Below are positions 11,772 to 22,780 of a stretch of DNA of 32,443 nucleotides, piece after piece (the first letter of the stretch is position 1; each line of letters opens with the position of its first letter). The stretch lies in the IMG/VR virus record IMGVR_UViG_2541047794_000003. One strand, 5' to 3'. A model generated the notes under the pieces. The model made no database searches. It had not been told where the DNA came from and worked only from the letters and a program-made list of their open reading frames with translations. Made by a program: the position numbers and the translations under genes. This stretch comes from a virus. Lineage: Duplodnaviria; Heunggongvirae; Uroviricota; Caudoviricetes.

Positions 11772-11879
11772 TTTTATGGATCACCTTTCTGATTGATTTC
11801 ATATTGGCGAGGTGACGTGAGTTAAGTAGAATGGCTGCGGGTGCTTGAGGCTATCTGTCTCAGGCATGAACACTGAAAG

Positions 11880-11960
11880 GCAGATAGAGAAAAGCCCCAG
11901 TTAACATTTCGCGTCCTGCAAGACGCTTAACATTAATCTGAGGCCCAATCTATGTCTCAC
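11880..11960 (-). ncRNA. Candidate Sok-like antisense RNA of the hok locus (approximate bounds)
   Basis: Minus-strand region complementary to hok leader/mok start; contains GGGGCU hairpin element analogous to Sok 3' end; candidate promoter TTGCCT-N17-TAACCT on minus strand. Confidence 0.35.
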
Positions 11961-12008
11961 AAATGTAGGTTAGCCTCTTACGTGCCGAAAGGCAAGGGGA
12001 AGCAGGCT

Positions 12009-12164
12009 ATGAAGCAGCAAAAGGCGATGTTAATCGCCCTGATCGTCATCTGTTTAACCGTCATAGTGACGGCACTGGTAACGAGGAAAGACCTCTGCGA
12101 GGTACGACTCCGAACCGGCCAGACGGAGGTCGCTGTCTTCACAGCTTACGAACCTGAGGAGTAA
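12009..12164 (+). CDS. hok: Hok/Gef-family type I toxin (small membrane peptide)
   Basis: 51-aa ORF MKQQKAMLIALIVICLTVIVTALVTRKDLCEVRLRTGQTEVAVFTAYEPEE matching Hok family pattern; leader has tac/ucb-like elements; in-frame upstream ATG at 11952 (mok-like). Confidence 0.85.
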   Translation: MKQQKAMLIALIVICLTVIVTALVTRKDLCEVRLRTGQTEVAVFTAYEPEE

Positions 12165-16829: not shown

Positions 16830-17045
16830 CTCACAATTTAGGCGGTTGACTGTTGTCTGGTTTGCGGGGAGTTTGTTAAAAGAAACTGGCATGGTGAATC
16901 CCCCTGTGCGGAGGGGCAATCAGCGAGTAGGTATATGGGATAATCGCGGATTCAGGTGCTGGTACTGAATTCACCGGGAGGCACCCGGCACCATGCAATG
17001 GCACATAGCGCCACTCTCCAGCCCCTCTCCGGAGGGGCTTTTCTG
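16830..17045 (+). repeat. Module A of tandem structured non-coding element (conserved arms GCATGGTG.../...CACCATGC, internal hairpins, terminator)
   Basis: CTCACAATT + TTGACT motif, conserved arm gcatggtgaatccccctgtgcggaggggc (16889-), arm ctgaattcaccgggaggcacccggcaccatgc (-16996), terminator CCCCTC tccg GAGGGG + T-run (17022-17045). Confidence 0.5.
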
Positions 17046-17297
17046 TGCCGGATACATCACAGTTTCTGGAACCTTAGGTACTACAGTATCAGTCAGGGTG
17101 CTATATTTTCAGATGTGATGAAAGCCTGTCAGCAGGCAGGGCGTATCGGAAATGACCCAGTAGAGAAAACGTTGACTCAGATACCGGTGCTGAGTTACCG
17201 GGAAACCGGCATCACATGACCGCTATCCTTCCAGGCCCATCCGCTCCGGTGGGCCTTTTTACTGCAGAAAACAGGTTCCCCGTTAAATGCTATGTTG

Positions 17298-17532
17298 CTC
17301 ACAATTCAGTAAGTTGACAGTTGCCTGTCAGACTGGGCATTTGTTAAAAAAATTTCGCATGGTGAATCCCCCTGAGCGGAGGGGCGACTGGTGACGGTAT
17401 AATCTCTGATTATCAAAACGAGAATGACGCGGGTTTAGTGGCACCGGGCTGAACTCACCGGGAGGCACCCGGCACCATGTGCATGATGATACAGATACGC
17501 GGCTTTAGCCCCTCTCCGGAGGGGTTTTCTTG
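17298..17532 (+). repeat. Module B, second copy of the same structured element with divergent core
   Basis: Same conserved arms (17357-17479) and same terminator (17507-17532); central ~60 nt unrelated to module A; preceded by terminator GGCCCA...TGGGCC+TTTTT (17234-17261). Confidence 0.5.
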
Positions 17533-17759
17533 TGGGCAAAAAAAGCCCGCGCTGGGAGACGCGGGCGGCAAGGAATAAACAATAAAACGTGAAGTAATAT
17601 TTCAGCTGGCGAATAATACCCCATAGTAATCACTCTGCGCAACTGCGCGGTCTTTTTCGAATTGCGGGCTGTCGTCTCTCTTCTGCCATTGTCCTGTAAC
17701 TTCCGGACTTCAGCCCGCTCCTTATTTTACTCACAATATTATCCCGGCCGGGAGGATTC

Positions 17760-19613
17760 ATGGCATTTAAACACTATGACGTGGTCAGGGCGGTATCGCC
17801 GTCAGACCTTGCGAAACGACTGACACAAAAACTGAAGGAGGGCTGGCAGCCGTTTGGTAGTCCGGTGGCCATAACCCCTTATACCCTGATGCAGGCGATT
17901 GCAGCAGAAGGTGATGTGGTGGTCAGTGGTGCAACTGAGCCGGATTGGTACTACGTCATCGTACTGGCCGGGCAGTCCAATGCCATGGCTTACGGTGAAG
18001 GGCTTCCGCTGCCGGATTCATACGATGCGCCCCATCCGCGCATTAAGCAACTGGCCCGTCGTAACACAGTGACTCCCGGTGGTGAAGTATGCGTATTTAA
18101 CGACATCATTCCTGCTGACCATTGTCTGCATGATGTTCAAGATATGAGTACGATTAACCATCCCCGGGCTGACCTGAGCAAAGGGCAGTACGGCTGTGTC
18201 GGACAGGGCTTACATATTGCCAAAAAACTGCTTCCGTATATCCCTAATAACGCGGGGATCCTGCTGGTACCATGCTGTCGTGGTGGTTCGGCATTCACCC
18301 AGGGCACGGAGGGGACATTCAGCGAGTCCACGGGGGCCAGTCAGGATTCGGCTCGCTGGGGAGTGGGTAAGCCGTTATATCAGGATCTGCTTTTCCGCAC
18401 GAAGGCAGCATTGCAGAAAAACCCGAAAAACGTTTTGCTGGCGATATGCTGGATGCAGGGGGAATTCGATATGACGAATGCCAGTTACGCCCAGCAGCCA
18501 GCAGCATTTCTTGCAATGGTACAGCAGTTCCGTGCTGACCTTGCCGGGCTGGCGGCGCAGTGTCACGGTGGAAGTCCGGCATCAGTCCCCTGGATTTGTG
18601 GCGACACGACATACGCGTGGAAACAAGAACACGGTACGCAATATGAAGTGGTATATGGTGCATATAAAGGTAAAGAATCCCAGCAGATTTATTTTGTTCC
18701 CTTTATGACCGATGGTAGCGGAGTTAATACACCGACAAACAACCCGTCAGAAGATCCTGATATTGCCGGGTCTGGTTATTACGGTTCGGCATCCCGAACG
18801 AACAAAAACTGGGTATCATCAAATCGCCCGACGCATTTCAGCTCATGGGCGCGTCGTGGCATTATTCCCGATCGTATGGCAACTGCTATTCTGAACGTAG
18901 CCGGTCGCACCTTAGCCTTCATTAGTGGTAAGGCACCGGAAATCAAACCCTCGCCCGGCGGCGACACGCCATCGGGGCCGTCTGAAGATGCATCCGTACG
19001 CACAATCTCCCTGTTGCCGACAGCCGGAGATGCTGCTGCGCAGGGCTGGAGCATTAAGAATGGCGGAATTCAGTTGTCAGAGGGTGTATTTAAGATCACC
19101 AAGCAGAGCAATAAAACCTGGTACCTGATGCATCCGGTGGATGACGCAATTACCCTGCTGACACAGGGCGGCAGACTGACCTGTAAGTTCCGCCTCTCAG
19201 GCGCACTGACCAACAATCAGTTCGGGCTGGGGATTTATCTGTATACGGACGCTCCCGTTCCTGATGATGTGGCGATGACGGGTACTGGTAATCCGTTCCT
19301 GATGTCTTACTTCACTCAGACCACTGACGGCAGAGTGAATCTGATGCATCACAGGAAAGCCGGAAACACGAAGCTGGGGGAGTTTGGCGATTACGGTAAC
19401 GACTGGCAGACGCTGGAGCTGGTGTTCACCGCCGGCAGTGCCACGGTTACTCCGAAACTGAATGGAGTGGCTGGCCCGGCATTCCAGGTCATAAAAGACA
19501 GTCTGACACTGGGGCTGAATGCGCTGACGCTGACGGATGTTACAAAAAATGCAGCGTATGGCGTTGAGATAGAAAGTCTGGTGCTGGAGATAAATGCACC
19601 GGCATCATCATAA
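17760..19613 (+). CDS. Prophage sialate O-acetylesterase (NanS-p type): N-terminal DUF1737 plus SGNH/SASA esterase domain
   Basis: 617 aa; GGGAGG SD; GQSNAMAYGEG esterase motif; sits downstream of the tRNA cluster as in Stx-phage late regions. Confidence 0.75.
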   Translation: MAFKHYDVVRAVSPSDLAKRLTQKLKEGWQPFGSPVAITPYTLMQAIAAEGDVVVSGATEPDWYYVIVLAGQSNAMAYGEGLPLPDSYDAPHPRIKQLARRNTVTPGGEVCVFNDIIPADHCLHDVQDMSTINHPRADLSKGQYGCVGQGLHIAKKLLPYIPNNAGILLVPCCRGGSAFTQGTEGTFSESTGASQDSARWGVGKPLYQDLLFRTKAALQKNPKNVLLAICWMQGEFDMTNASYAQQPAAFLAMVQQFRADLAGLAAQCHGGSPASVPWICGDTTYAWKQEHGTQYEVVYGAYKGKESQQIYFVPFMTDGSGVNTPTNNPSEDPDIAGSGYYGSASRTNKNWVSSNRPTHFSSWARRGIIPDRMATAILNVAGRTLAFISGKAPEIKPSPGGDTPSGPSEDASVRTISLLPTAGDAAAQGWSIKNGGIQLSEGVFKITKQSNKTWYLMHPVDDAITLLTQGGRLTCKFRLSGALTNNQFGLGIYLYTDAPVPDDVAMTGTGNPFLMSYFTQTTDGRVNLMHHRKAGNTKLGEFGDYGNDWQTLELVFTAGSATVTPKLNGVAGPAFQVIKDSLTLGLNALTLTDVTKNAAYGVEIESLVLEINAPASS

Positions 19614-19698
19614 AAAGTGAGCCAGCCAAATGGAAGGTATCGTTAAACTCACCGGTAGTGTCAGTGGGTCGTCTGAGATGCCTGCATGAGTTATCAGA

Positions 19699-19729
19699 GC
19701 CATCAGTACTTAACTGGTGGCTTTTTTTA
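19699..19729 (+). terminator. Hairpin plus T-run between esterase gene and holin
   Basis: GCCATCAG tacttaa CTGGTGGC (one G-U) followed by TTTTTTT. Confidence 0.35.
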
Positions 19730-19763
19730 TTGTTGTCAGCTTCCGGATAACGGGAGACGGGGT

Positions 19764-19979
19764 ATGTACCAGATGGAAAAAATCACAACAGGTGTGTCAT
19801 ACACCACGTCAGCGGTGGGAACGGGCTACTGGTTCCTGCAGTTGCTGGACAGGGTTTCCCCGTCTCAGTGGGCGGCAATAGGCGTGCTGGGGAGTCTGCT
19901 GTTTGGGCTGCTGACATATCTGACTAACCTGTATTTCAAAATCAGAGAGGACCGTCGTAAGGCTGCACGGGGAGAGTAA
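19764..19979 (+). CDS. S: Holin (phage 21 S-type, class II) with dual-start motif
   Basis: 71 aa [26 protein letters not shown]... two TM segments, basic C-terminus; GGAGA SD; track ORF start 19686 is an upstream extension. Confidence 0.8.
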
Positions 19980-19983
19980 TTCA

Positions 19984-20328
19984 ATGACTCAAAACTATGA
20001 ACTGATTGTGAAAGGGATCCGCAATTTTGAGAATAAAGTTACGGTAACTTTAGCGTTACGGGACAAAAAACGCTTTGACGGTGAAATTTTTGACCTGGAC
20101 ATCTCGCTGGACCGTGTTGAAGGTGCCGCGCTGGAGTTTTATGAGGCAGCAGCCAGAAGGAGCATCAGACAGGTCTTCCTGGATGTTGCTGCCGGGTTAT
20201 GTGAAGGGGATGAGCAGTCGCCGGAAAAGCGCCCCGTAATTTTAGAGGCGCAGGATGTGTTGATAACCTACAGAGGAAAACTACCGGGAATAATTACGGG
20301 TTCTCTGAAGAGTCCGCCGAAATGGTAA
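19984..20328 (+). CDS. Hypothetical protein within lysis cassette
   Basis: 114 aa, ATG 5 nt after holin stop, GGAGAG SD. Confidence 0.55.
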   Translation: MTQNYELIVKGIRNFENKVTVTLALRDKKRFDGEIFDLDISLDRVEGAALEFYEAAARRSIRQVFLDVAAGLCEGDEQSPEKRPVILEAQDVLITYRGKLPGIITGSLKSPPKW

Positions 20329-20566
20329 TTTTACCAGCATATTTTTCATCCAGTAATACAGCAAGCCGCCTGAAAGAGTCTTGTTGTTCCTGAGACCATT
20401 TGGGATTGCATGATTCAAACTGGATTGATGCCAGCGTTGATTGCATCTGTTCCCTTGGAATTGAGAATGCCAGATATGAGAAGGCGACGGTAAGGGTATT
20501 CACGTCTTCCCGAAGCCTGGAAATGCTGTCGAGCAACTCCTGTAGAGAAATGGTGTTATTGTCCAT
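20294..20566 (-). CDS. Hypothetical protein encoded antisense to the lysis cassette
   Basis: 90 aa; GAGGA SD 8 nt upstream of ATG (20564-20566); 3' end overlaps previous plus-strand gene. Confidence 0.45.
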   Translation of the reverse strand: MDNNTISLQELLDSISRLREDVNTLTVAFSYLAFSIPREQMQSTLASIQFESCNPKWSQEQQDSFRRLAVLLDEKYAGKITISADSSENP

Positions 20567-20671: not shown

Positions 20672-21205
20672 ATGAACGCAAAAATCAGATACGGCCTGTC
20701 GGCTGCCGTTCTGGCGCTGATTGCCGCTGGTGCGCCTGCGCCTGACATTCTCGACCAGTTTCTGGATGAAAAGGAAGGTAACCACACCACGGCATACCGT
20801 GATGGCGCGGGTATCTGGACCATCTGCCGCGGTGCCATCCTGGTGGATGGCAAACCTGTCGTTCCGGGCATGAAGTTGTCGAAGGAAAAATGCGACCGGG
20901 TTAACGCCATTGAGCGTGATAAGGCGCTGGCATGGGTGGAGAAAAACATCAGAGTGCCATTGAGTGAACCCCAGAAAGCGGGGATCGCGTCATTCTGTCC
21001 GTACAACATTGGTCCCGGTAAGTGTTTCCCGTCGACGTTTTATAAACGAATTAATGCAGGTGATCGCAGGGGAGCGTGTGAGGCGATTCGCTGGTGGATT
21101 AAGGACGGTGGCAGAGACTGCCGTATCCGCTCAAATAACTGTTATGGTCAGGTATCCCGTCGTGACCAGGAGAGCGCGCTGGCGTGCTGGGGAATCGACA
21201 GATAA
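20672..21205 (+). CDS. R: SAR endolysin (GH24 lysozyme with N-terminal signal-anchor-release segment)
   Basis: 177 aa; hydrophobic N-terminus LSAAVLALIAAGAPA followed by lysozyme-like region. Confidence 0.8.
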   Translation: MNAKIRYGLSAAVLALIAAGAPAPDILDQFLDEKEGNHTTAYRDGAGIWTICRGAILVDGKPVVPGMKLSKEKCDRVNAIERDKALAWVEKNIRVPLSEPQKAGIASFCPYNIGPGKCFPSTFYKRINAGDRRGACEAIRWWIKDGGRDCRIRSNNCYGQVSRRDQESALACWGIDR

Positions 21206-21295
21206 GCAGAATATTTTGCTGAAAAATAAGGCATGGCCACGCGGGCGGATAACATGAAATCCTGCGAACTGGCGAAACGTAAGTGAATAAAAGTA

Positions 21296-21328
21296 AAAAC
21301 CCCGTTTGTTGGCACCAAGCGGGGTTTT
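21296..21328. terminator. Hairpin flanked by A-run and U-run between R and Rz (possible bidirectional terminator)
   Basis: AAACCCCG ... CGGGGTTT 8-bp stem, followed by TTTTGTGTTT. Confidence 0.4.
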
Positions 21329-21403
21329 GTGTTTCCTGACTCCGGAAAAGTCAAAGGAGAAAGTGTGTTTGATTTTAGCAAACTGATTCGGGAGATTCGA
21401 GTG

Positions 21404-21502
21404 ATGGCTGAAAAATTATCCACCTGGAAGTTCATTCTTATCTGGCTGGTGTTTGTGATTATGGCCTCCGGTTATTTCATCGGTCAGATACGCTGGTGGT
21501 GA
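21404..21502 (+). CDS. Candidate 32-aa single-TM peptide, stop adjacent to Rz start
   Basis: [32 protein letters not shown]; GGGAGA SD 9 nt upstream; TGA stop 1 nt before Rz ATG; not in the six-frame track (too short). Confidence 0.3.
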
Positions 21503-21503
21503 A

Positions 21504-21971
21504 ATGAACCGCGTACTGTGCGTGGTCATCATTGCCCTGCTGGTGGCCTGTGGTGCGCTTAGTCTGGGGCTGAATCATTACCGTGATAACGCCATTACCT
21601 ACAAAGCCCAGCGCGACAAAAATGTCAGAGAACTGAAGCTGGCGAACGCGGCAATTACTGACATGCAGATGCGTCAGCGTGATGTTGCTGCGCTCGATGC
21701 AAAATACACGAAGGAGTTAGCTGATGCGAAAGCTGAAAATGAAACTCTTCGCGCTGACGTTGCCGCTGGTCGTAAGCGCCTGCGTATCAACGCCACCTGT
21801 CCAGGTCCCGTGCGTGAAGCCACCGGCACCGCCCGCGTGGATAATGCAACCGGCCCCCAACTGGCAGACACCGTTACACGGGATTATTTCACCCTCAGAG
21901 AGCGGCTGATGACGATGCAGAAGCAACTGGAAGGGGCGCAGGAATATATCCGTACTCAGTGCCTGAAATAA
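21504..21971 (+). CDS. Rz: Rz i-spanin
   Basis: 155 aa, N-terminal TM, coiled coil; strong resemblance to lambda Rz ([17 protein letters not shown]...). Confidence 0.9.
21724..21909 (+). CDS. Rz1: Rz1 o-spanin lipoprotein embedded in +1 frame of Rz
   Basis: 61 aa with lipobox LVVSAC and proline-rich segment, fully nested in Rz. Confidence 0.8.
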
Positions 21972-22321
21972 GTTTTGTTGATGCGCCGTATCGTCGCTGT
22001 ATTCCCTCATTAACAGAGACCGCAGCCCGACAGGGAGACTCCTCTGCGCGAGTGTGCGGGGATAATCAAAAACGATACACACCGGGGTTTACCGCGTTAA
22101 CGGAGCGCGGCGTTGTCCCCTCATAGTCGCCTGTCCGGTGCGATGGTGGAAGAAACCGGATGTTTATCACTATTAATTGATGACACAGAAATGGATTCAT
22201 TGAATTTCAGCACGTTTTTGTATTCGTGTTATTGAACATCTGTTTATTTTACTTTTAACATATTGATAATAAAAAGAGCTGTAAATCTTTAGATGAGTCG
22301 ATTTTGTCCGGGGAAGTTCAA

Positions 22322-22462
22322 ATGGATTTTATGCTGACGGTTTCTGGTGTGGTTATCCTGTCCATTGCTTATACTGCAGATAAATATGGCTGCCATTTGT
22401 TATCACGTATTGGCGCTTATTGTTCGTTGATGCTGATTTTCTCGTCGCTTTTTTTTGAGTAA
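22322..22462 (+). CDS. Candidate 46-aa hydrophobic peptide in AT-rich region
   Basis: GGGGAAG SD, ATG 22322; one TM-like segment; followed by T-run. Confidence 0.3.
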   Translation: MDFMLTVSGVVILSIAYTADKYGCHLLSRIGAYCSLMLIFSSLFFE

Positions 22463-22594
22463 GTTATATTAATTATAACAAATAATTTTCTGTGTTATTT
22501 TTTCAGGCTATCCCGTCAGAGGGGAAGCCTGTACTGCCGGGGAGCGAATGGAAAACTGATGTGTCCGGTAACTGCGTGTTCTGTGAACACCATG

Positions 22595-22780
22595 TTACTT
22601 AATTATGTAATTCATACCCGAACTCTCTGTTGACAGCCTTCTTCTGCAGGCTTCAATAACCCACGCTGAAAAGTTTCCTGAACCTTTCAGATCAAGAGCG
22701 ATGTTAATTTGTTCAATCATCTGGTTTGGAAATCGGATGTTGCGGGTTGTTGTTCTGCGGGTTCTGTTCTTTGATGACAT
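22595..22780 (-). CDS. Ribbon-helix-helix (Arc/MetJ/CopG-like) DNA-binding protein
   Basis: 61 aa; NIRFPNQMIEQINIALDLKGSGNFSAWVIEACRRRL fits RHH beta-alpha-alpha pattern; GGGGAAA SD. Confidence 0.5.
   Translation of the reverse strand: MSSKNRTRRTTTRNIRFPNQMIEQINIALDLKGSGNFSAWVIEACRRRLSTESSGMNYIIK

Follow-up and report, generated by a model that had tools for sequence, protein, structure and literature searches.

A small gene with a structured leader in the R-Rz spacer

The 32,443-nucleotide stretch of viral DNA analyzed here (IMG/VR record IMGVR_UViG_2541047794_000003; hereafter the window) is a lambdoid prophage of the Qin/H-19B/Stx type. Our subject is the spacer between its endolysin gene R and its i-spanin gene Rz, which holds a small membrane-protein gene of the PHROG 6632 family behind two leader hairpins, H1 and H2. 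We are highly confident that this gene, and the cassette that it forms with its leader, are real. A preliminary description of the same DNA had reported a spacer of about 300 bp in place of a tight junction. The count bears this out: R stops at 21205 and Rz begins with the ATG at 21504, leaving 298 nt, whereas the K-12 Qin homologues rrrQ and rzpQ overlap and have no spacer. The strong hairpin that had been placed at 21296-21328, flanked by A- and T-runs, is present with 13 bp. To call the segment inserted was likewise apt, since the GC content is 0.41-0.43 across 21250-21474, the region of the cassette, versus 0.52-0.56 in R and Rz, and R abuts Rz in relatives. Several E. coli strains, most of human origin and including S88, MS7163 and VR50, are 100% identical to the window across 21150-21560. 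The features of the locus are as follows.

20672-21205, plus strand: R, a signal-anchor-release (SAR)-type, phage 21-like endolysin, 5' neighbour of the cassette (Pfam Phage_lysozyme, E 1.3e-23; phrog_7); its N-terminus, MNAKIRYGLSAAVLALIAAGA, is weakly hydrophobic in the translation of the open reading frame (ORF)
21283-21295: A-rich tract directly 5' of H1, whose minus-strand copy is the U-rich tail UUUUUACUUUUAUU after H1'
21296-21328: H1, a 13-bp GC-rich terminator-like hairpin with T-runs on both strands, hence bidirectional (terminator scan, RNAalifold, pair count)
21332-21360, plus strand: H2, a leader hairpin predicted to sequester the Shine-Dalgarno sequence (SD) (single-sequence folds, covariation)
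21354-21359, plus strand: SD AAGGAG for the GTG start, 5 nt 5' of GTG 21365, read from the sequence
21365-21502, plus strand: 45-aa ORF, PHROG 6632 (phrog_6632, PGAP call, dN/dS, AlphaFold2)
21372-21380, minus strand: predicted extended -10 promoter TGCTAAAAT (hexamer 21377 to 21372, TG 21380 to 21379), inside codons 3-6
21284-21366, minus strand: predicted cis-antisense RNA of about 80 nt, proposed from the promoter motif and the minus-strand terminator
21404-21502, plus strand: 32-aa frame from an internal in-frame start at the invariant Met14 (GGGAG at 21390-21394, 9 nt 5' of the ATG)
21495-21502, plus strand: GGTGGTGA, comprising codons W44-W45-stop, SD for the next gene (TGG TGG invariant)
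21504-21971, plus strand: Rz, i-spanin, 3' neighbour of the cassette (Pfam Phage_lysis, E 4e-51; phrog_13)

The preliminary description had recognized a 32-residue ORF with an SD, a transmembrane helix and a stop next to Rz. This frame exists, running from ATG 21404 to the TGA at 21500-21502, one base before the ATG of Rz. It is nevertheless the C-terminal part of a 45-aa ORF, because the frame is open from GTG 21365 with a strong SD and the N-terminus is conserved; the GTG is most likely the real start. The 13 additional N-terminal residues are kept in all homologues found, with the pattern x-D-F/I-S-K-L-I-R-E-L/I-R-x-M, and a GGGAGAA or AAGGAG motif occupies the same SD position across the family. 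The 32-aa frame is possibly a second translation product, and some paralogues or gene calls begin at the internal ATG (P0043, P0056, L129). Extensions of the 5' end to 57, 65 or 72 aa, offered by the ORF finder and some gene callers, were dismissed as annotation artefacts: they read through H1 and their residues are not conserved. Such forms, extended through H1 to 65-72 aa (MNKSK...), also stand in deposited annotations, as seen in Stx2_EH2201 (L005, 2578-2796) and in proteins P0003, P0004, P0010 and P0011.

The 45-aa protein is annotated by PGAP in strain S88 as WP_000459345.1. With hmmscan, its residues 1-45 align to profile positions 1-45 of 45 of phrog_6632 (E 1.2e-29), and this full-length match makes it a member of PHROG 6632, a family of unknown function. 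The family is small, with 41 clusters at 50% identity among 1.84e9 representative proteins in a profile search. The peptide has no match in Pfam, NCBIfam or PADLOC, and a literature search by peptide sequence, PHROG id and WP accession returned no matching paper. AlphaFold2 modeled an amphipathic helix (residues 4-17), a break (18-19), where most homologues have a proline, and then a hydrophobic helix (20-44), with a predicted local distance difference test score of 85. The product is thus predicted to be a single-pass inner-membrane protein, with residues 20-44 as its membrane helix.

Hairpin and ORF travel as one mobile cassette

Beyond the window, we searched a set with one genome per species, IMG/VR and a phage collection, which together returned about 200 loci. 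Nearly all of them show the A-rich tract, H1, a pyrimidine tail, H2, the SD and the ORF at nearly fixed spacing. The cassette recurs in prophages of Enterobacterales, among them Escherichia, Salmonella, Citrobacter, Trabulsiella, Edwardsiella, Yersinia, Izhakiella, Sodalis, Brenneria, Pantoea, Symbiopectobacterium and Serratia, and one copy lies in an Azoarcus metagenome-assembled genome. An R21-type lysozyme is the 5' gene in 136 of 205 places. Elsewhere the 5' gene encodes GH108 with PG_binding_3, GH19 of two kinds, Peptidase_M15_4, CHAP/NlpC or a 138-aa protein without a Pfam match, and is followed by Rz, DUF2514 or other i-spanin-like genes. The position between endolysin and spanin is therefore found for six Pfam-distinct endolysin kinds and for the 138-aa protein. 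In 31 places the 5' gene encodes the baseplate spike gpV (Apex motif), usually with a gpW-like wedge gene next; this position occurs in the isolated phages SEN34 (gene SEN34_23) and Rac-SA53 (rac58). Further 5' genes encode a DUF2612 protein, a tail fibre, an LPD38 protein and a T7 gp14-like protein, and the cassette is also found near a tail-tip gene.

The A-rich tract precedes H1 in every genomic context, though the sequence further 5' is unrelated. By this distribution, the hairpin and the ORF form a single moron-type cassette (21283-21502, about 220 bp) that is horizontally mobile. About 903 of 5,426 complete E. coli genomes (about 17%) carry at least 80% of it, mostly unannotated, and the whole spacer is present in 46 phage records, including H-19B, CP-1639 and many Stx1a, Stx2a and Stx2c phages. 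The ORF had been called unannotated, which is right for most RefSeq and phage records, where no feature is given at the cassette; some do carry a 45-aa hypothetical protein.

The 3' end of the cassette joins it to whatever gene follows. The two tryptophan codons TGG TGG are invariant, the stop is TGA in 42 of the 53 unique ORFs, and GGTGGTGA is close to the SD consensus GGAGGUGA. The ATG of the next gene lies 1-7 nt past the stop in Rz, gpW and other contexts. We suggest that the cassette is tolerated inside essential operons because GGTGGTGA would give the next gene its ribosome-binding site.

In relatives, further tiny ORFs with a single helix accumulate in the endolysin-Rz and gpV-gpW slots, such as MISDKLITLVK..., before Rz and after ant, ...DDISRALAFAIKWVAV... 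and MSAELIRAMAFAIRIVAIAVLVWAIRWW; loci with such ORFs include L006 (VT2-Sakai), L206 (Sakai ECs_5741), L008, L009 and L218. Some loci hold arrays of three to four tiny ORFs (L127-L129, 2090-2890), some of them sharing the same leader.

The ORF is under purifying selection and its first codons are frozen

The preliminary description had proposed conservation and dN/dS across related prophages as a check on the small ORF. Nei-Gojobori counts, summed over 891 pairs of unique ORFs below 85% identity, gave a proportion of nonsynonymous differences (pN) of 0.21 and of synonymous differences (pS) of 0.64 for the 45-aa ORF, a dN/dS of about 0.17. The frame is intact across genera, the ORF length is conserved and four tryptophans (Trp21, Trp27, Trp44, Trp45) never vary. 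In codons 23-45, in the transmembrane part, synonymous sites have reached saturation (pS 0.82), and over codons 15-45 pS is 0.66-0.82 versus a pN of 0.17-0.27. In codons 2-14, pS is only 0.29. This indicates that the ORF is coding and under purifying selection, and that its 5' end carries an extra constraint at the nucleotide level. The constraint can be read codon by codon among the unique ORFs.

Codon 3 (Asp): GAT in 47 of 47
Codon 4: NNT in all (TTT 31, ATT 15, CTT 3, GTT 2, CCT 2)
Codon 5 (Ser): AGC in 49 of 49
Codon 6 (Lys): AAA in 52 of 53
Codon 9 (Arg): CGG or AGG in all 43 Arg codons; the codon ends in GG in 50 of 53
Codon 10 (Glu): GAG in 51 of 51
Codon 12 (Arg): CGA in 53 of 53
Codon 14 (Met): ATG in 53 of 53

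The same amino acids are free in codon choice downstream: Phe23 is TTC in 31 and TTT in 22 ORFs, and Arg43 is CGC in 24, CGT in 17, CGA in 7 and CGG in 4. The GGGAG nine bases 5' of ATG14 resembles an internal SD; on the minus strand, codon 12 (CGA) puts TCG at the -35 position. Two pairings that involve these codons were rejected. One is a hairpin inside codons 3-14 (UUAGCAA...UUGC..CUAA), discarded as the cause of the freeze since the Salmonella type allows it and the E. coli type does not. The other, discarded as a general feature, is long-range sense pairing between the leader and codons 2-4 and 8-11 in a 121-nt fold, in which the leader varies while the codons are fixed, with no covariation.

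The leader folds into two covarying hairpins

The arms of H1 are AAAACCCCGTTTG (21296-21308) and CAAGCGGGGTTTT (21316-21328), with the A-run before and TTTTGTGTTT after. With 13 pairs, 6 of them G-C, and the tails UUUUGUGUUU on the plus and UUUUUACUUUUAUU on the minus strand, H1 has the form of an intrinsic terminator, whose activity is predicted. Across the family the stem base is AAAGCCCCG/CGGGGCTTT, followed by the pyrimidine-rich tail. That tail (TTTCCT, 21332-37) pairs with AGGAGA (21355-60), which overlaps the SD, in the outer stem of H2. The inner stem of H2 is here GACT (21338-41) with AGTC (21349-52); the variants CCTTG/CAAGG, CGTTA/TAACG, CCTG/CAGG and GACT/AGTC occur in the family. 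H2 was predicted in all of about 40 family members folded singly. Because the outer stem pairs the SD with the tail of H1, the ribosome-binding site of the GTG start is predicted to be sequestered family-wide, although the exact register of this sequestration drifts between lineages.

A generic terminator scan did not exceed chance, with 3 sites versus 2.9 expected in 3 kb. Covariation was examined in an alignment of 31 non-redundant divergent homologous leaders, in which H2 was specified by hand. RNAalifold returned H1 with 12 pairs, 10 of them with compensatory double changes, and our own pair count found double changes in 10 of the 13 pairs of H1, with 94% of cells paired. Double changes occur in 5 of the 10 pairs of H2. 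For H1 and H2 together, 90.5% of cells are paired, compared to 46-55% when the partners are slid by 1-3 columns, and 15 of 23 pairs show double changes, compared to 5-9 in the slid controls. The covariation score was reached by none of 500 shuffles. The compensatory double changes across the 31 homologues argue that H1 is non-random despite the chance-level scan. Predicted stability by strand is mixed and not decisive: of 65 sequences, 47 favour the plus-strand hairpin and 17 the minus-strand hairpin. At gathering thresholds, a search of the whole window returned no Rfam family for the cassette, and a permissive search of 21150-21560 gave as best hit the rimP leader (E 0.069), below its gathering score and driven by the terminator.

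A promoter-like motif faces the leader from within the first codons

The minus strand of codons 3-6 reads TG-C-TAAAAT, a predicted extended -10 element. In other members the hexamer is TAATAT or TAAGAT, and its position 4 is the sole variable base. The motif TGnTAnnAT is present in every unique cassette with H1 and in 0 of the 6 copies that have neither H1 nor H2; these copies are paralogues in arrays of tiny transmembrane ORFs (L127-129). It is kept where the encoded residues change. In the Azoarcus copy (L020), Ile (ATC) replaces Ser5 and the minus strand still reads TG-A-TAAAAT; a metagenomic relative whose N-terminus is M-E-S-Y-I-K (L211) has H1 and makes TAAGAT from different codons. Two further divergent relatives read TGCTAAGAT and TGCTAAAAT and another reads TGCTAATGT, all of them with H1, and the motif is also kept in GC-rich relatives (L210, L213). 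In PhiR12_2_star and the O157 strain F3113, the small transmembrane ORF behind the same leader is an unrelated one, and its codons 3-5 (AAG TAT AAA) give TATACT at the same offset of +8..+13. In L129, the leader and the first five codons are fused to another unrelated transmembrane ORF of 55 aa. In all, three unrelated small transmembrane ORFs are joined to the leader, either alone or together with the first five codons, and a -10-like hexamer is kept at +8..+13.

By a rough estimate of our own, based on GAT, NNT and AGC usage, amino-acid constraint alone would yield the motif with a chance of about 0.1 per lineage. Its chance retention is implausible, because it is kept in at least 10 lineages in which synonymous divergence elsewhere is saturated. 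A transcript from this putative promoter would start about 7 nt past the hexamer, so that its 5' end would lie opposite the GTG and be followed by the anti-SD, H2', H1' and the tail UUUUUACUUUUAUU, the complement of the A-tract that is conserved 5' of H1. As an 86-nt minus-strand RNA (21368 to 21283), it folds at -23.2 kcal/mol (z = -3.6) into two hairpins and a U-tail, a fold like that of small regulatory RNAs. An alternative minus-strand promoter from a consensus scan (CTGACC-18-CATAAT, 21487..21458) was dropped, as its -10 is not conserved in a Salmonella homologue.

Reported prophage small RNAs (sRNAs) were compared with the predicted antisense RNA and set aside by position. Among the Hfq cross-linking (CRAC) peaks of O157 Sakai (Tree et al. 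2014, Table S2), EcOnc22 (about 85 nt) maps between the tail-assembly and host-specificity genes, and EcOnc10, 11 and 12 map just downstream of Rz. The PasA-D sRNAs map between esterase and holin or 5' of the esterase, not in the R-Rz gap (bioRxiv 10.64898/2026.05.13.724894). Transcription-start and ribosome-profiling resources for K-12 do not apply, because Qin has no cassette.

Other features of the prophage

The cassette lies in the late region of the prophage, near the following features.

17760-19613: sialate esterase, late region
19767-19979: phage 21-type pinholin (Pfam Phage_holin_2_1 match)
19984-20328: DUF1327/YdfR gene, late region
21206-21282, plus strand (about 90 nt, 21206-21295, in the comparison of phage records): conserved non-coding stretch beside R, outside the mobile cassette (83-95% conservation)
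21724-21909: Rz1 o-spanin embedded in Rz (lipobox-like LVVSAC in the ORF translation)

Over 300 phage records share the stretch of about 90 nt after the R stop at 83-95% conservation, both where the cassette comes next and where an ant gene does; among them are VT2-Sakai/933W-type phages with ant instead of the cassette. It contains an almost invariant CGGGCGGATAACA, and comparison of the phage records revealed no conserved ORF in it. According to Rfam, the RNA genes of the window are DicF, C4, isrK, sok (in a hok/sok copy at 11839-12014), three tRNAs and two STnc100 copies.

Several further features of the window may be recorded. The gap between esterase and pinholin (19620-19760) has a strong terminator-like hairpin at 19696-19724, and PasA/PasC prophage sRNAs are reported in the esterase-holin gap (bioRxiv 10.64898/2026.05.13.724894). 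The two STnc100 copies lie 5' of the esterase (16860-17050 and 17328-17537); STnc100 RNAs are described as PasD relatives in the same preprint. A 90-aa minus-strand ORF (20294-20566), convergent to the late operon, lies between DUF1327/YdfR and R and shares 35 nt with the end of the DUF1327 gene; phrog_2411, a group of unknown function, matches it (E 1e-58), and Pfam has no family for it. Beyond Rz, an AT-rich island (22150-22375, GC 0.28-0.34) with a minus-strand promoter-like site looks like another insertion, and a 52-aa hydrophobic ORF lies in it at 22304-22462. In Sakai Sp9, Sp10 and Sp12, the strong Hfq-bound peaks EcOnc12, 11 and 10, respectively, border the 3' side of a minus-strand gene of 75 aa. 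Sakai annotation calls this gene only hypothetical; its position suggests to us the DUF3950 (YlcI/YnfO) gene. A minus-strand ORF of the window (22595-22780) is its likely counterpart, so that the region of about 22480-22595 may contain a homologous sRNA.

A proposed antisense-gated membrane peptide and the competing explanations

Three points go beyond the preliminary description: the hairpin and the ORF appear as one mobile unit, the ORF has 45 codons, and the opposite strand carries a promoter-like motif. We infer a constitutive cis-antisense RNA of about 80 nt, with its promoter in the first codons and H1 as its terminator. As a whole, the cassette would then be an antisense-gated membrane-peptide unit with a type I toxin-antitoxin-like layout, a model, built from sequence comparison, that we rate somewhat better than an even chance. 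In the lysogen, the antisense RNA alone would be made. Stray sense transcripts would be stopped at H1, made untranslatable through H2 and paired with the antisense RNA, which would be perfectly complementary to the start codon, the SD and H2. After induction, Q-antiterminated late transcription would pass H1 and outnumber the antisense RNA, so that the peptide would be made late, in up to two forms of 45 aa (from GTG 21365) and 32 aa (from ATG 21404). We speculate that it acts on the cytoplasmic membrane late in infection, where here it could tune the pinholin/SAR-endolysin lysis step, and, equally speculatively, that the two products could act like a holin/antiholin pair.

A number of observations weigh against this model. 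The -35 region of the putative promoter is poor (TCGAAT or TCGCAA), so the call depends on the extended -10. A sense-strand promoter was found neither in the cassette, where H1 and the SD are about 30 nt apart, nor conserved 5' of it, and so a classical toxin-antitoxin addiction cycle is not evident. H1 contains 22 G.T versus 3 A.C wobble pairs on the plus strand, which argues that selection acts on the full stem in the mRNA-sense RNA; fully Watson-Crick pairing on the minus strand is confined to the lower 9 bp. The promoter only partly explains the frozen codons 9-12 (GGGAG..CGA). The four Sakai prophages examined (Sp9, Sp10, Sp12 and Sp15) have the ant arrangement and not the cassette, and the Sakai CRAC dataset is for that reason no test of the antisense RNA. 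Finally, the cassette is not tied to lysis genes, since it also lies between baseplate genes and at other late-operon junctions, and the baseplate and tail-operon copies argue against a strictly lysis-bound role. The preliminary description had suggested a lysis-modulating peptide. The association with the endolysin-spanin junction across six Pfam-distinct endolysin kinds speaks for this and is suggestive, and we regard a specific role in lysis timing as possible but doubtful.

The wobble asymmetry of H1 fits well with another reading, in which the gene encodes an ordinary late small membrane protein behind a structured leader, without an antisense RNA. H1 would be an attenuator or stability hairpin, H2 would damp translation, and the peptide would be an accessory lysis factor like an antiholin, P2 LysA or a releasin. 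The frozen codons would then reflect translation initiation, at the GTG start and through an internal SD for Met14, for which the GGGAG 9 nt before the invariant ATG14 is a natural candidate. SD sequestration on the sense strand, the place between endolysin and spanin for six Pfam-distinct endolysin kinds, the other tiny transmembrane ORFs that other phages place in the same slot and P2 lysA in an equivalent slot are all in line with this. It leaves unexplained why Ser5 is always AGC, Asp3 always GAT and codon 4 always NNT, why the hexamer position is kept with different amino acids and unrelated ORFs, and why the A-tract lies 5' of H1 in every context; an accessory lysis factor would also sit oddly between baseplate genes, and the peptide matches no holin, releasin (DUF2730) or other Pfam family. 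We consider this reading a minority possibility that deserves to be taken seriously. A moron active in the lysogen rather than in the lytic programme, with a membrane protein that benefits host or prophage through superinfection exclusion, like HK97 gp15, or another defence, is improbable. The mobility of the cassette, its low GC content and its insertion at several late-operon junctions would suit such a role, and known exclusion morons such as HK97 gp15 are small single-pass membrane proteins too; but no sense promoter lies in the roughly 30 nt between H1 and the SD or is conserved further upstream, H1 and H2 would keep read-through transcripts from being expressed, and PADLOC gave no match.

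Covarying hairpins, U-tails on both strands, the promoter-like motif and a leader module common to different downstream ORFs could also mean that the RNA alone matters, as a minus-strand prophage sRNA gene or a plus-strand RNA derived from a 3' untranslated region, with an incidental ORF. We think this very unlikely, given that codons 15-45, beyond the predicted RNA, bear the clear coding signature in pS and pN described above, together with the conserved length, the four invariant tryptophans and a frame intact across genera. The least credible explanation is the remnant that the preliminary description had offered beside a lysis peptide: a hairpin left over from the terminator of a lost gene such as ant, and an ORF arisen by chance. 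Related Stx phages do have ant in the same gap and share the first 90 nt or so after R, yet ant-type spacers have neither hairpin nor ORF and share only 21206-21300. The cassette, for its part, is intact and selected in many genera and contexts, and its ORF matches phrog_6632 from end to end.

Returning to the antisense-gated model, a bolder version would make PHROG 6632 and its leader an undescribed family of antisense-RNA-gated membrane peptides that ride in phage late operons as a threshold timer, or "dead-man" switch, for membrane collapse. We put this forward tentatively and think it rather unlikely. The constitutive antisense RNA would set the threshold and the peptide would appear solely under massive late transcription; in Stx-type phages, the switch would help to set the time of lysis and of toxin release. 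The variable loops of H1 and H2 would give each copy its own specificity in multi-prophage strains, and host mRNAs may be further targets of the RNA, in trans, by way of its CU-rich anti-SD 5' end.

The cassette is common, occurring in E. coli, H-19B, many Stx1 and Stx2 phages, Salmonella phages and at least 12 genera, and it is mostly unannotated and without an assigned function. On a conservative reading, annotation should be corrected to the 45-aa gene, neither a 72-aa read-through nor an empty spacer, and the endolysin-spanin junction is a hot spot for tiny membrane proteins. If the antisense-gated model is true, the cassette would add a new family to the few phage antisense-controlled genes and type I-like membrane peptides. 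It would also illustrate how an essential operon can tolerate a mobile insert that brings its own lock and gives an SD to the next gene, and the cassette would be a candidate for the fine control of lysis timing, and hence of Shiga-toxin release, in pinholin/SAR-endolysin phages.

Comparison with known systems

The closest parallel in layout is with type I pairs such as SymE/SymR of E. coli, reportedly a cis-antisense pair in which the SymR promoter lies inside the first codons of the gene. The predicted antisense RNA of the cassette is similarly short, would cover the SD and start, and would have its promoter in the first codons; the sense leader is predicted to fold so as to hide the SD, and the unit is mobile. 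The hok/sok pair is a further example of the cis-antisense type. Hok, TisB and Ldr are small hydrophobic toxins with a single helix, and the cassette product resembles them: at 45 aa it is under 60 aa, and AlphaFold2 predicts it to be hydrophobic with a single membrane helix. In contrast to type I systems, the cassette has no relation to a known toxin or antitoxin in Pfam, NCBIfam, PADLOC or Rfam, and its peptide gene, for which no sense promoter of its own was found, depends on the phage late operon. Its putative antisense terminator is also a sense-strand hairpin 5' of the gene, and it gives an SD to the next gene. It is therefore not a classical type I system, because a promoter for the peptide gene was not found and homology to the known families is lacking.

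Classical phage morons lie between a sense promoter of their own and a terminator, and are expressed in the lysogen. Like morons, the cassette is extra DNA between genes that are adjacent in relatives, with a GC content below that of its flanks, and it is found at several junctions and encodes a small membrane protein. Unlike classical morons, it has its hairpin upstream of the ORF, and the ORF abuts the next gene. With no sense promoter found and no downstream terminator, it is not a classical moron.

Lysis genes offer a third comparison. Lambda S107/S105 and phage 21 S71/S68 are dual-start holin/antiholin pairs, and P2 LysA is an accessory lysis regulator. Like accessory lysis regulators, the cassette gene lies between a SAR endolysin and Rz and encodes a small membrane protein with two possible in-frame starts; as in the dual-start pairs, the longer form would have extra charged residues. 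Its starts are 13 codons apart, however, compared to 1-3 in dual-start holins, and each has an SD. Its C-terminal tail consists of the five residues QIRWW after one transmembrane helix, and the peptide has no holin family match in Pfam or PHROG, whereas the holin of the window (19767-19979) does match. Lacking a charged C-terminal domain, it is not a holin. The Mu gp25 releasin, a protein of 99 aa, is N-out/C-in, with a 73-aa cytoplasmic domain of DUF2730 fold (PMC9239132). The cassette peptide has no DUF2730 match and the opposite layout, with a C-terminal transmembrane helix behind an N-terminal segment of 19 residues, and is accordingly not a releasin.

The PHROG 6632 record describes the protein only, and contains no function, RNA elements or context. 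Taken together, these comparisons place the gene in PHROG 6632 and suggest that it works like an antisense-gated peptide of the type I style.

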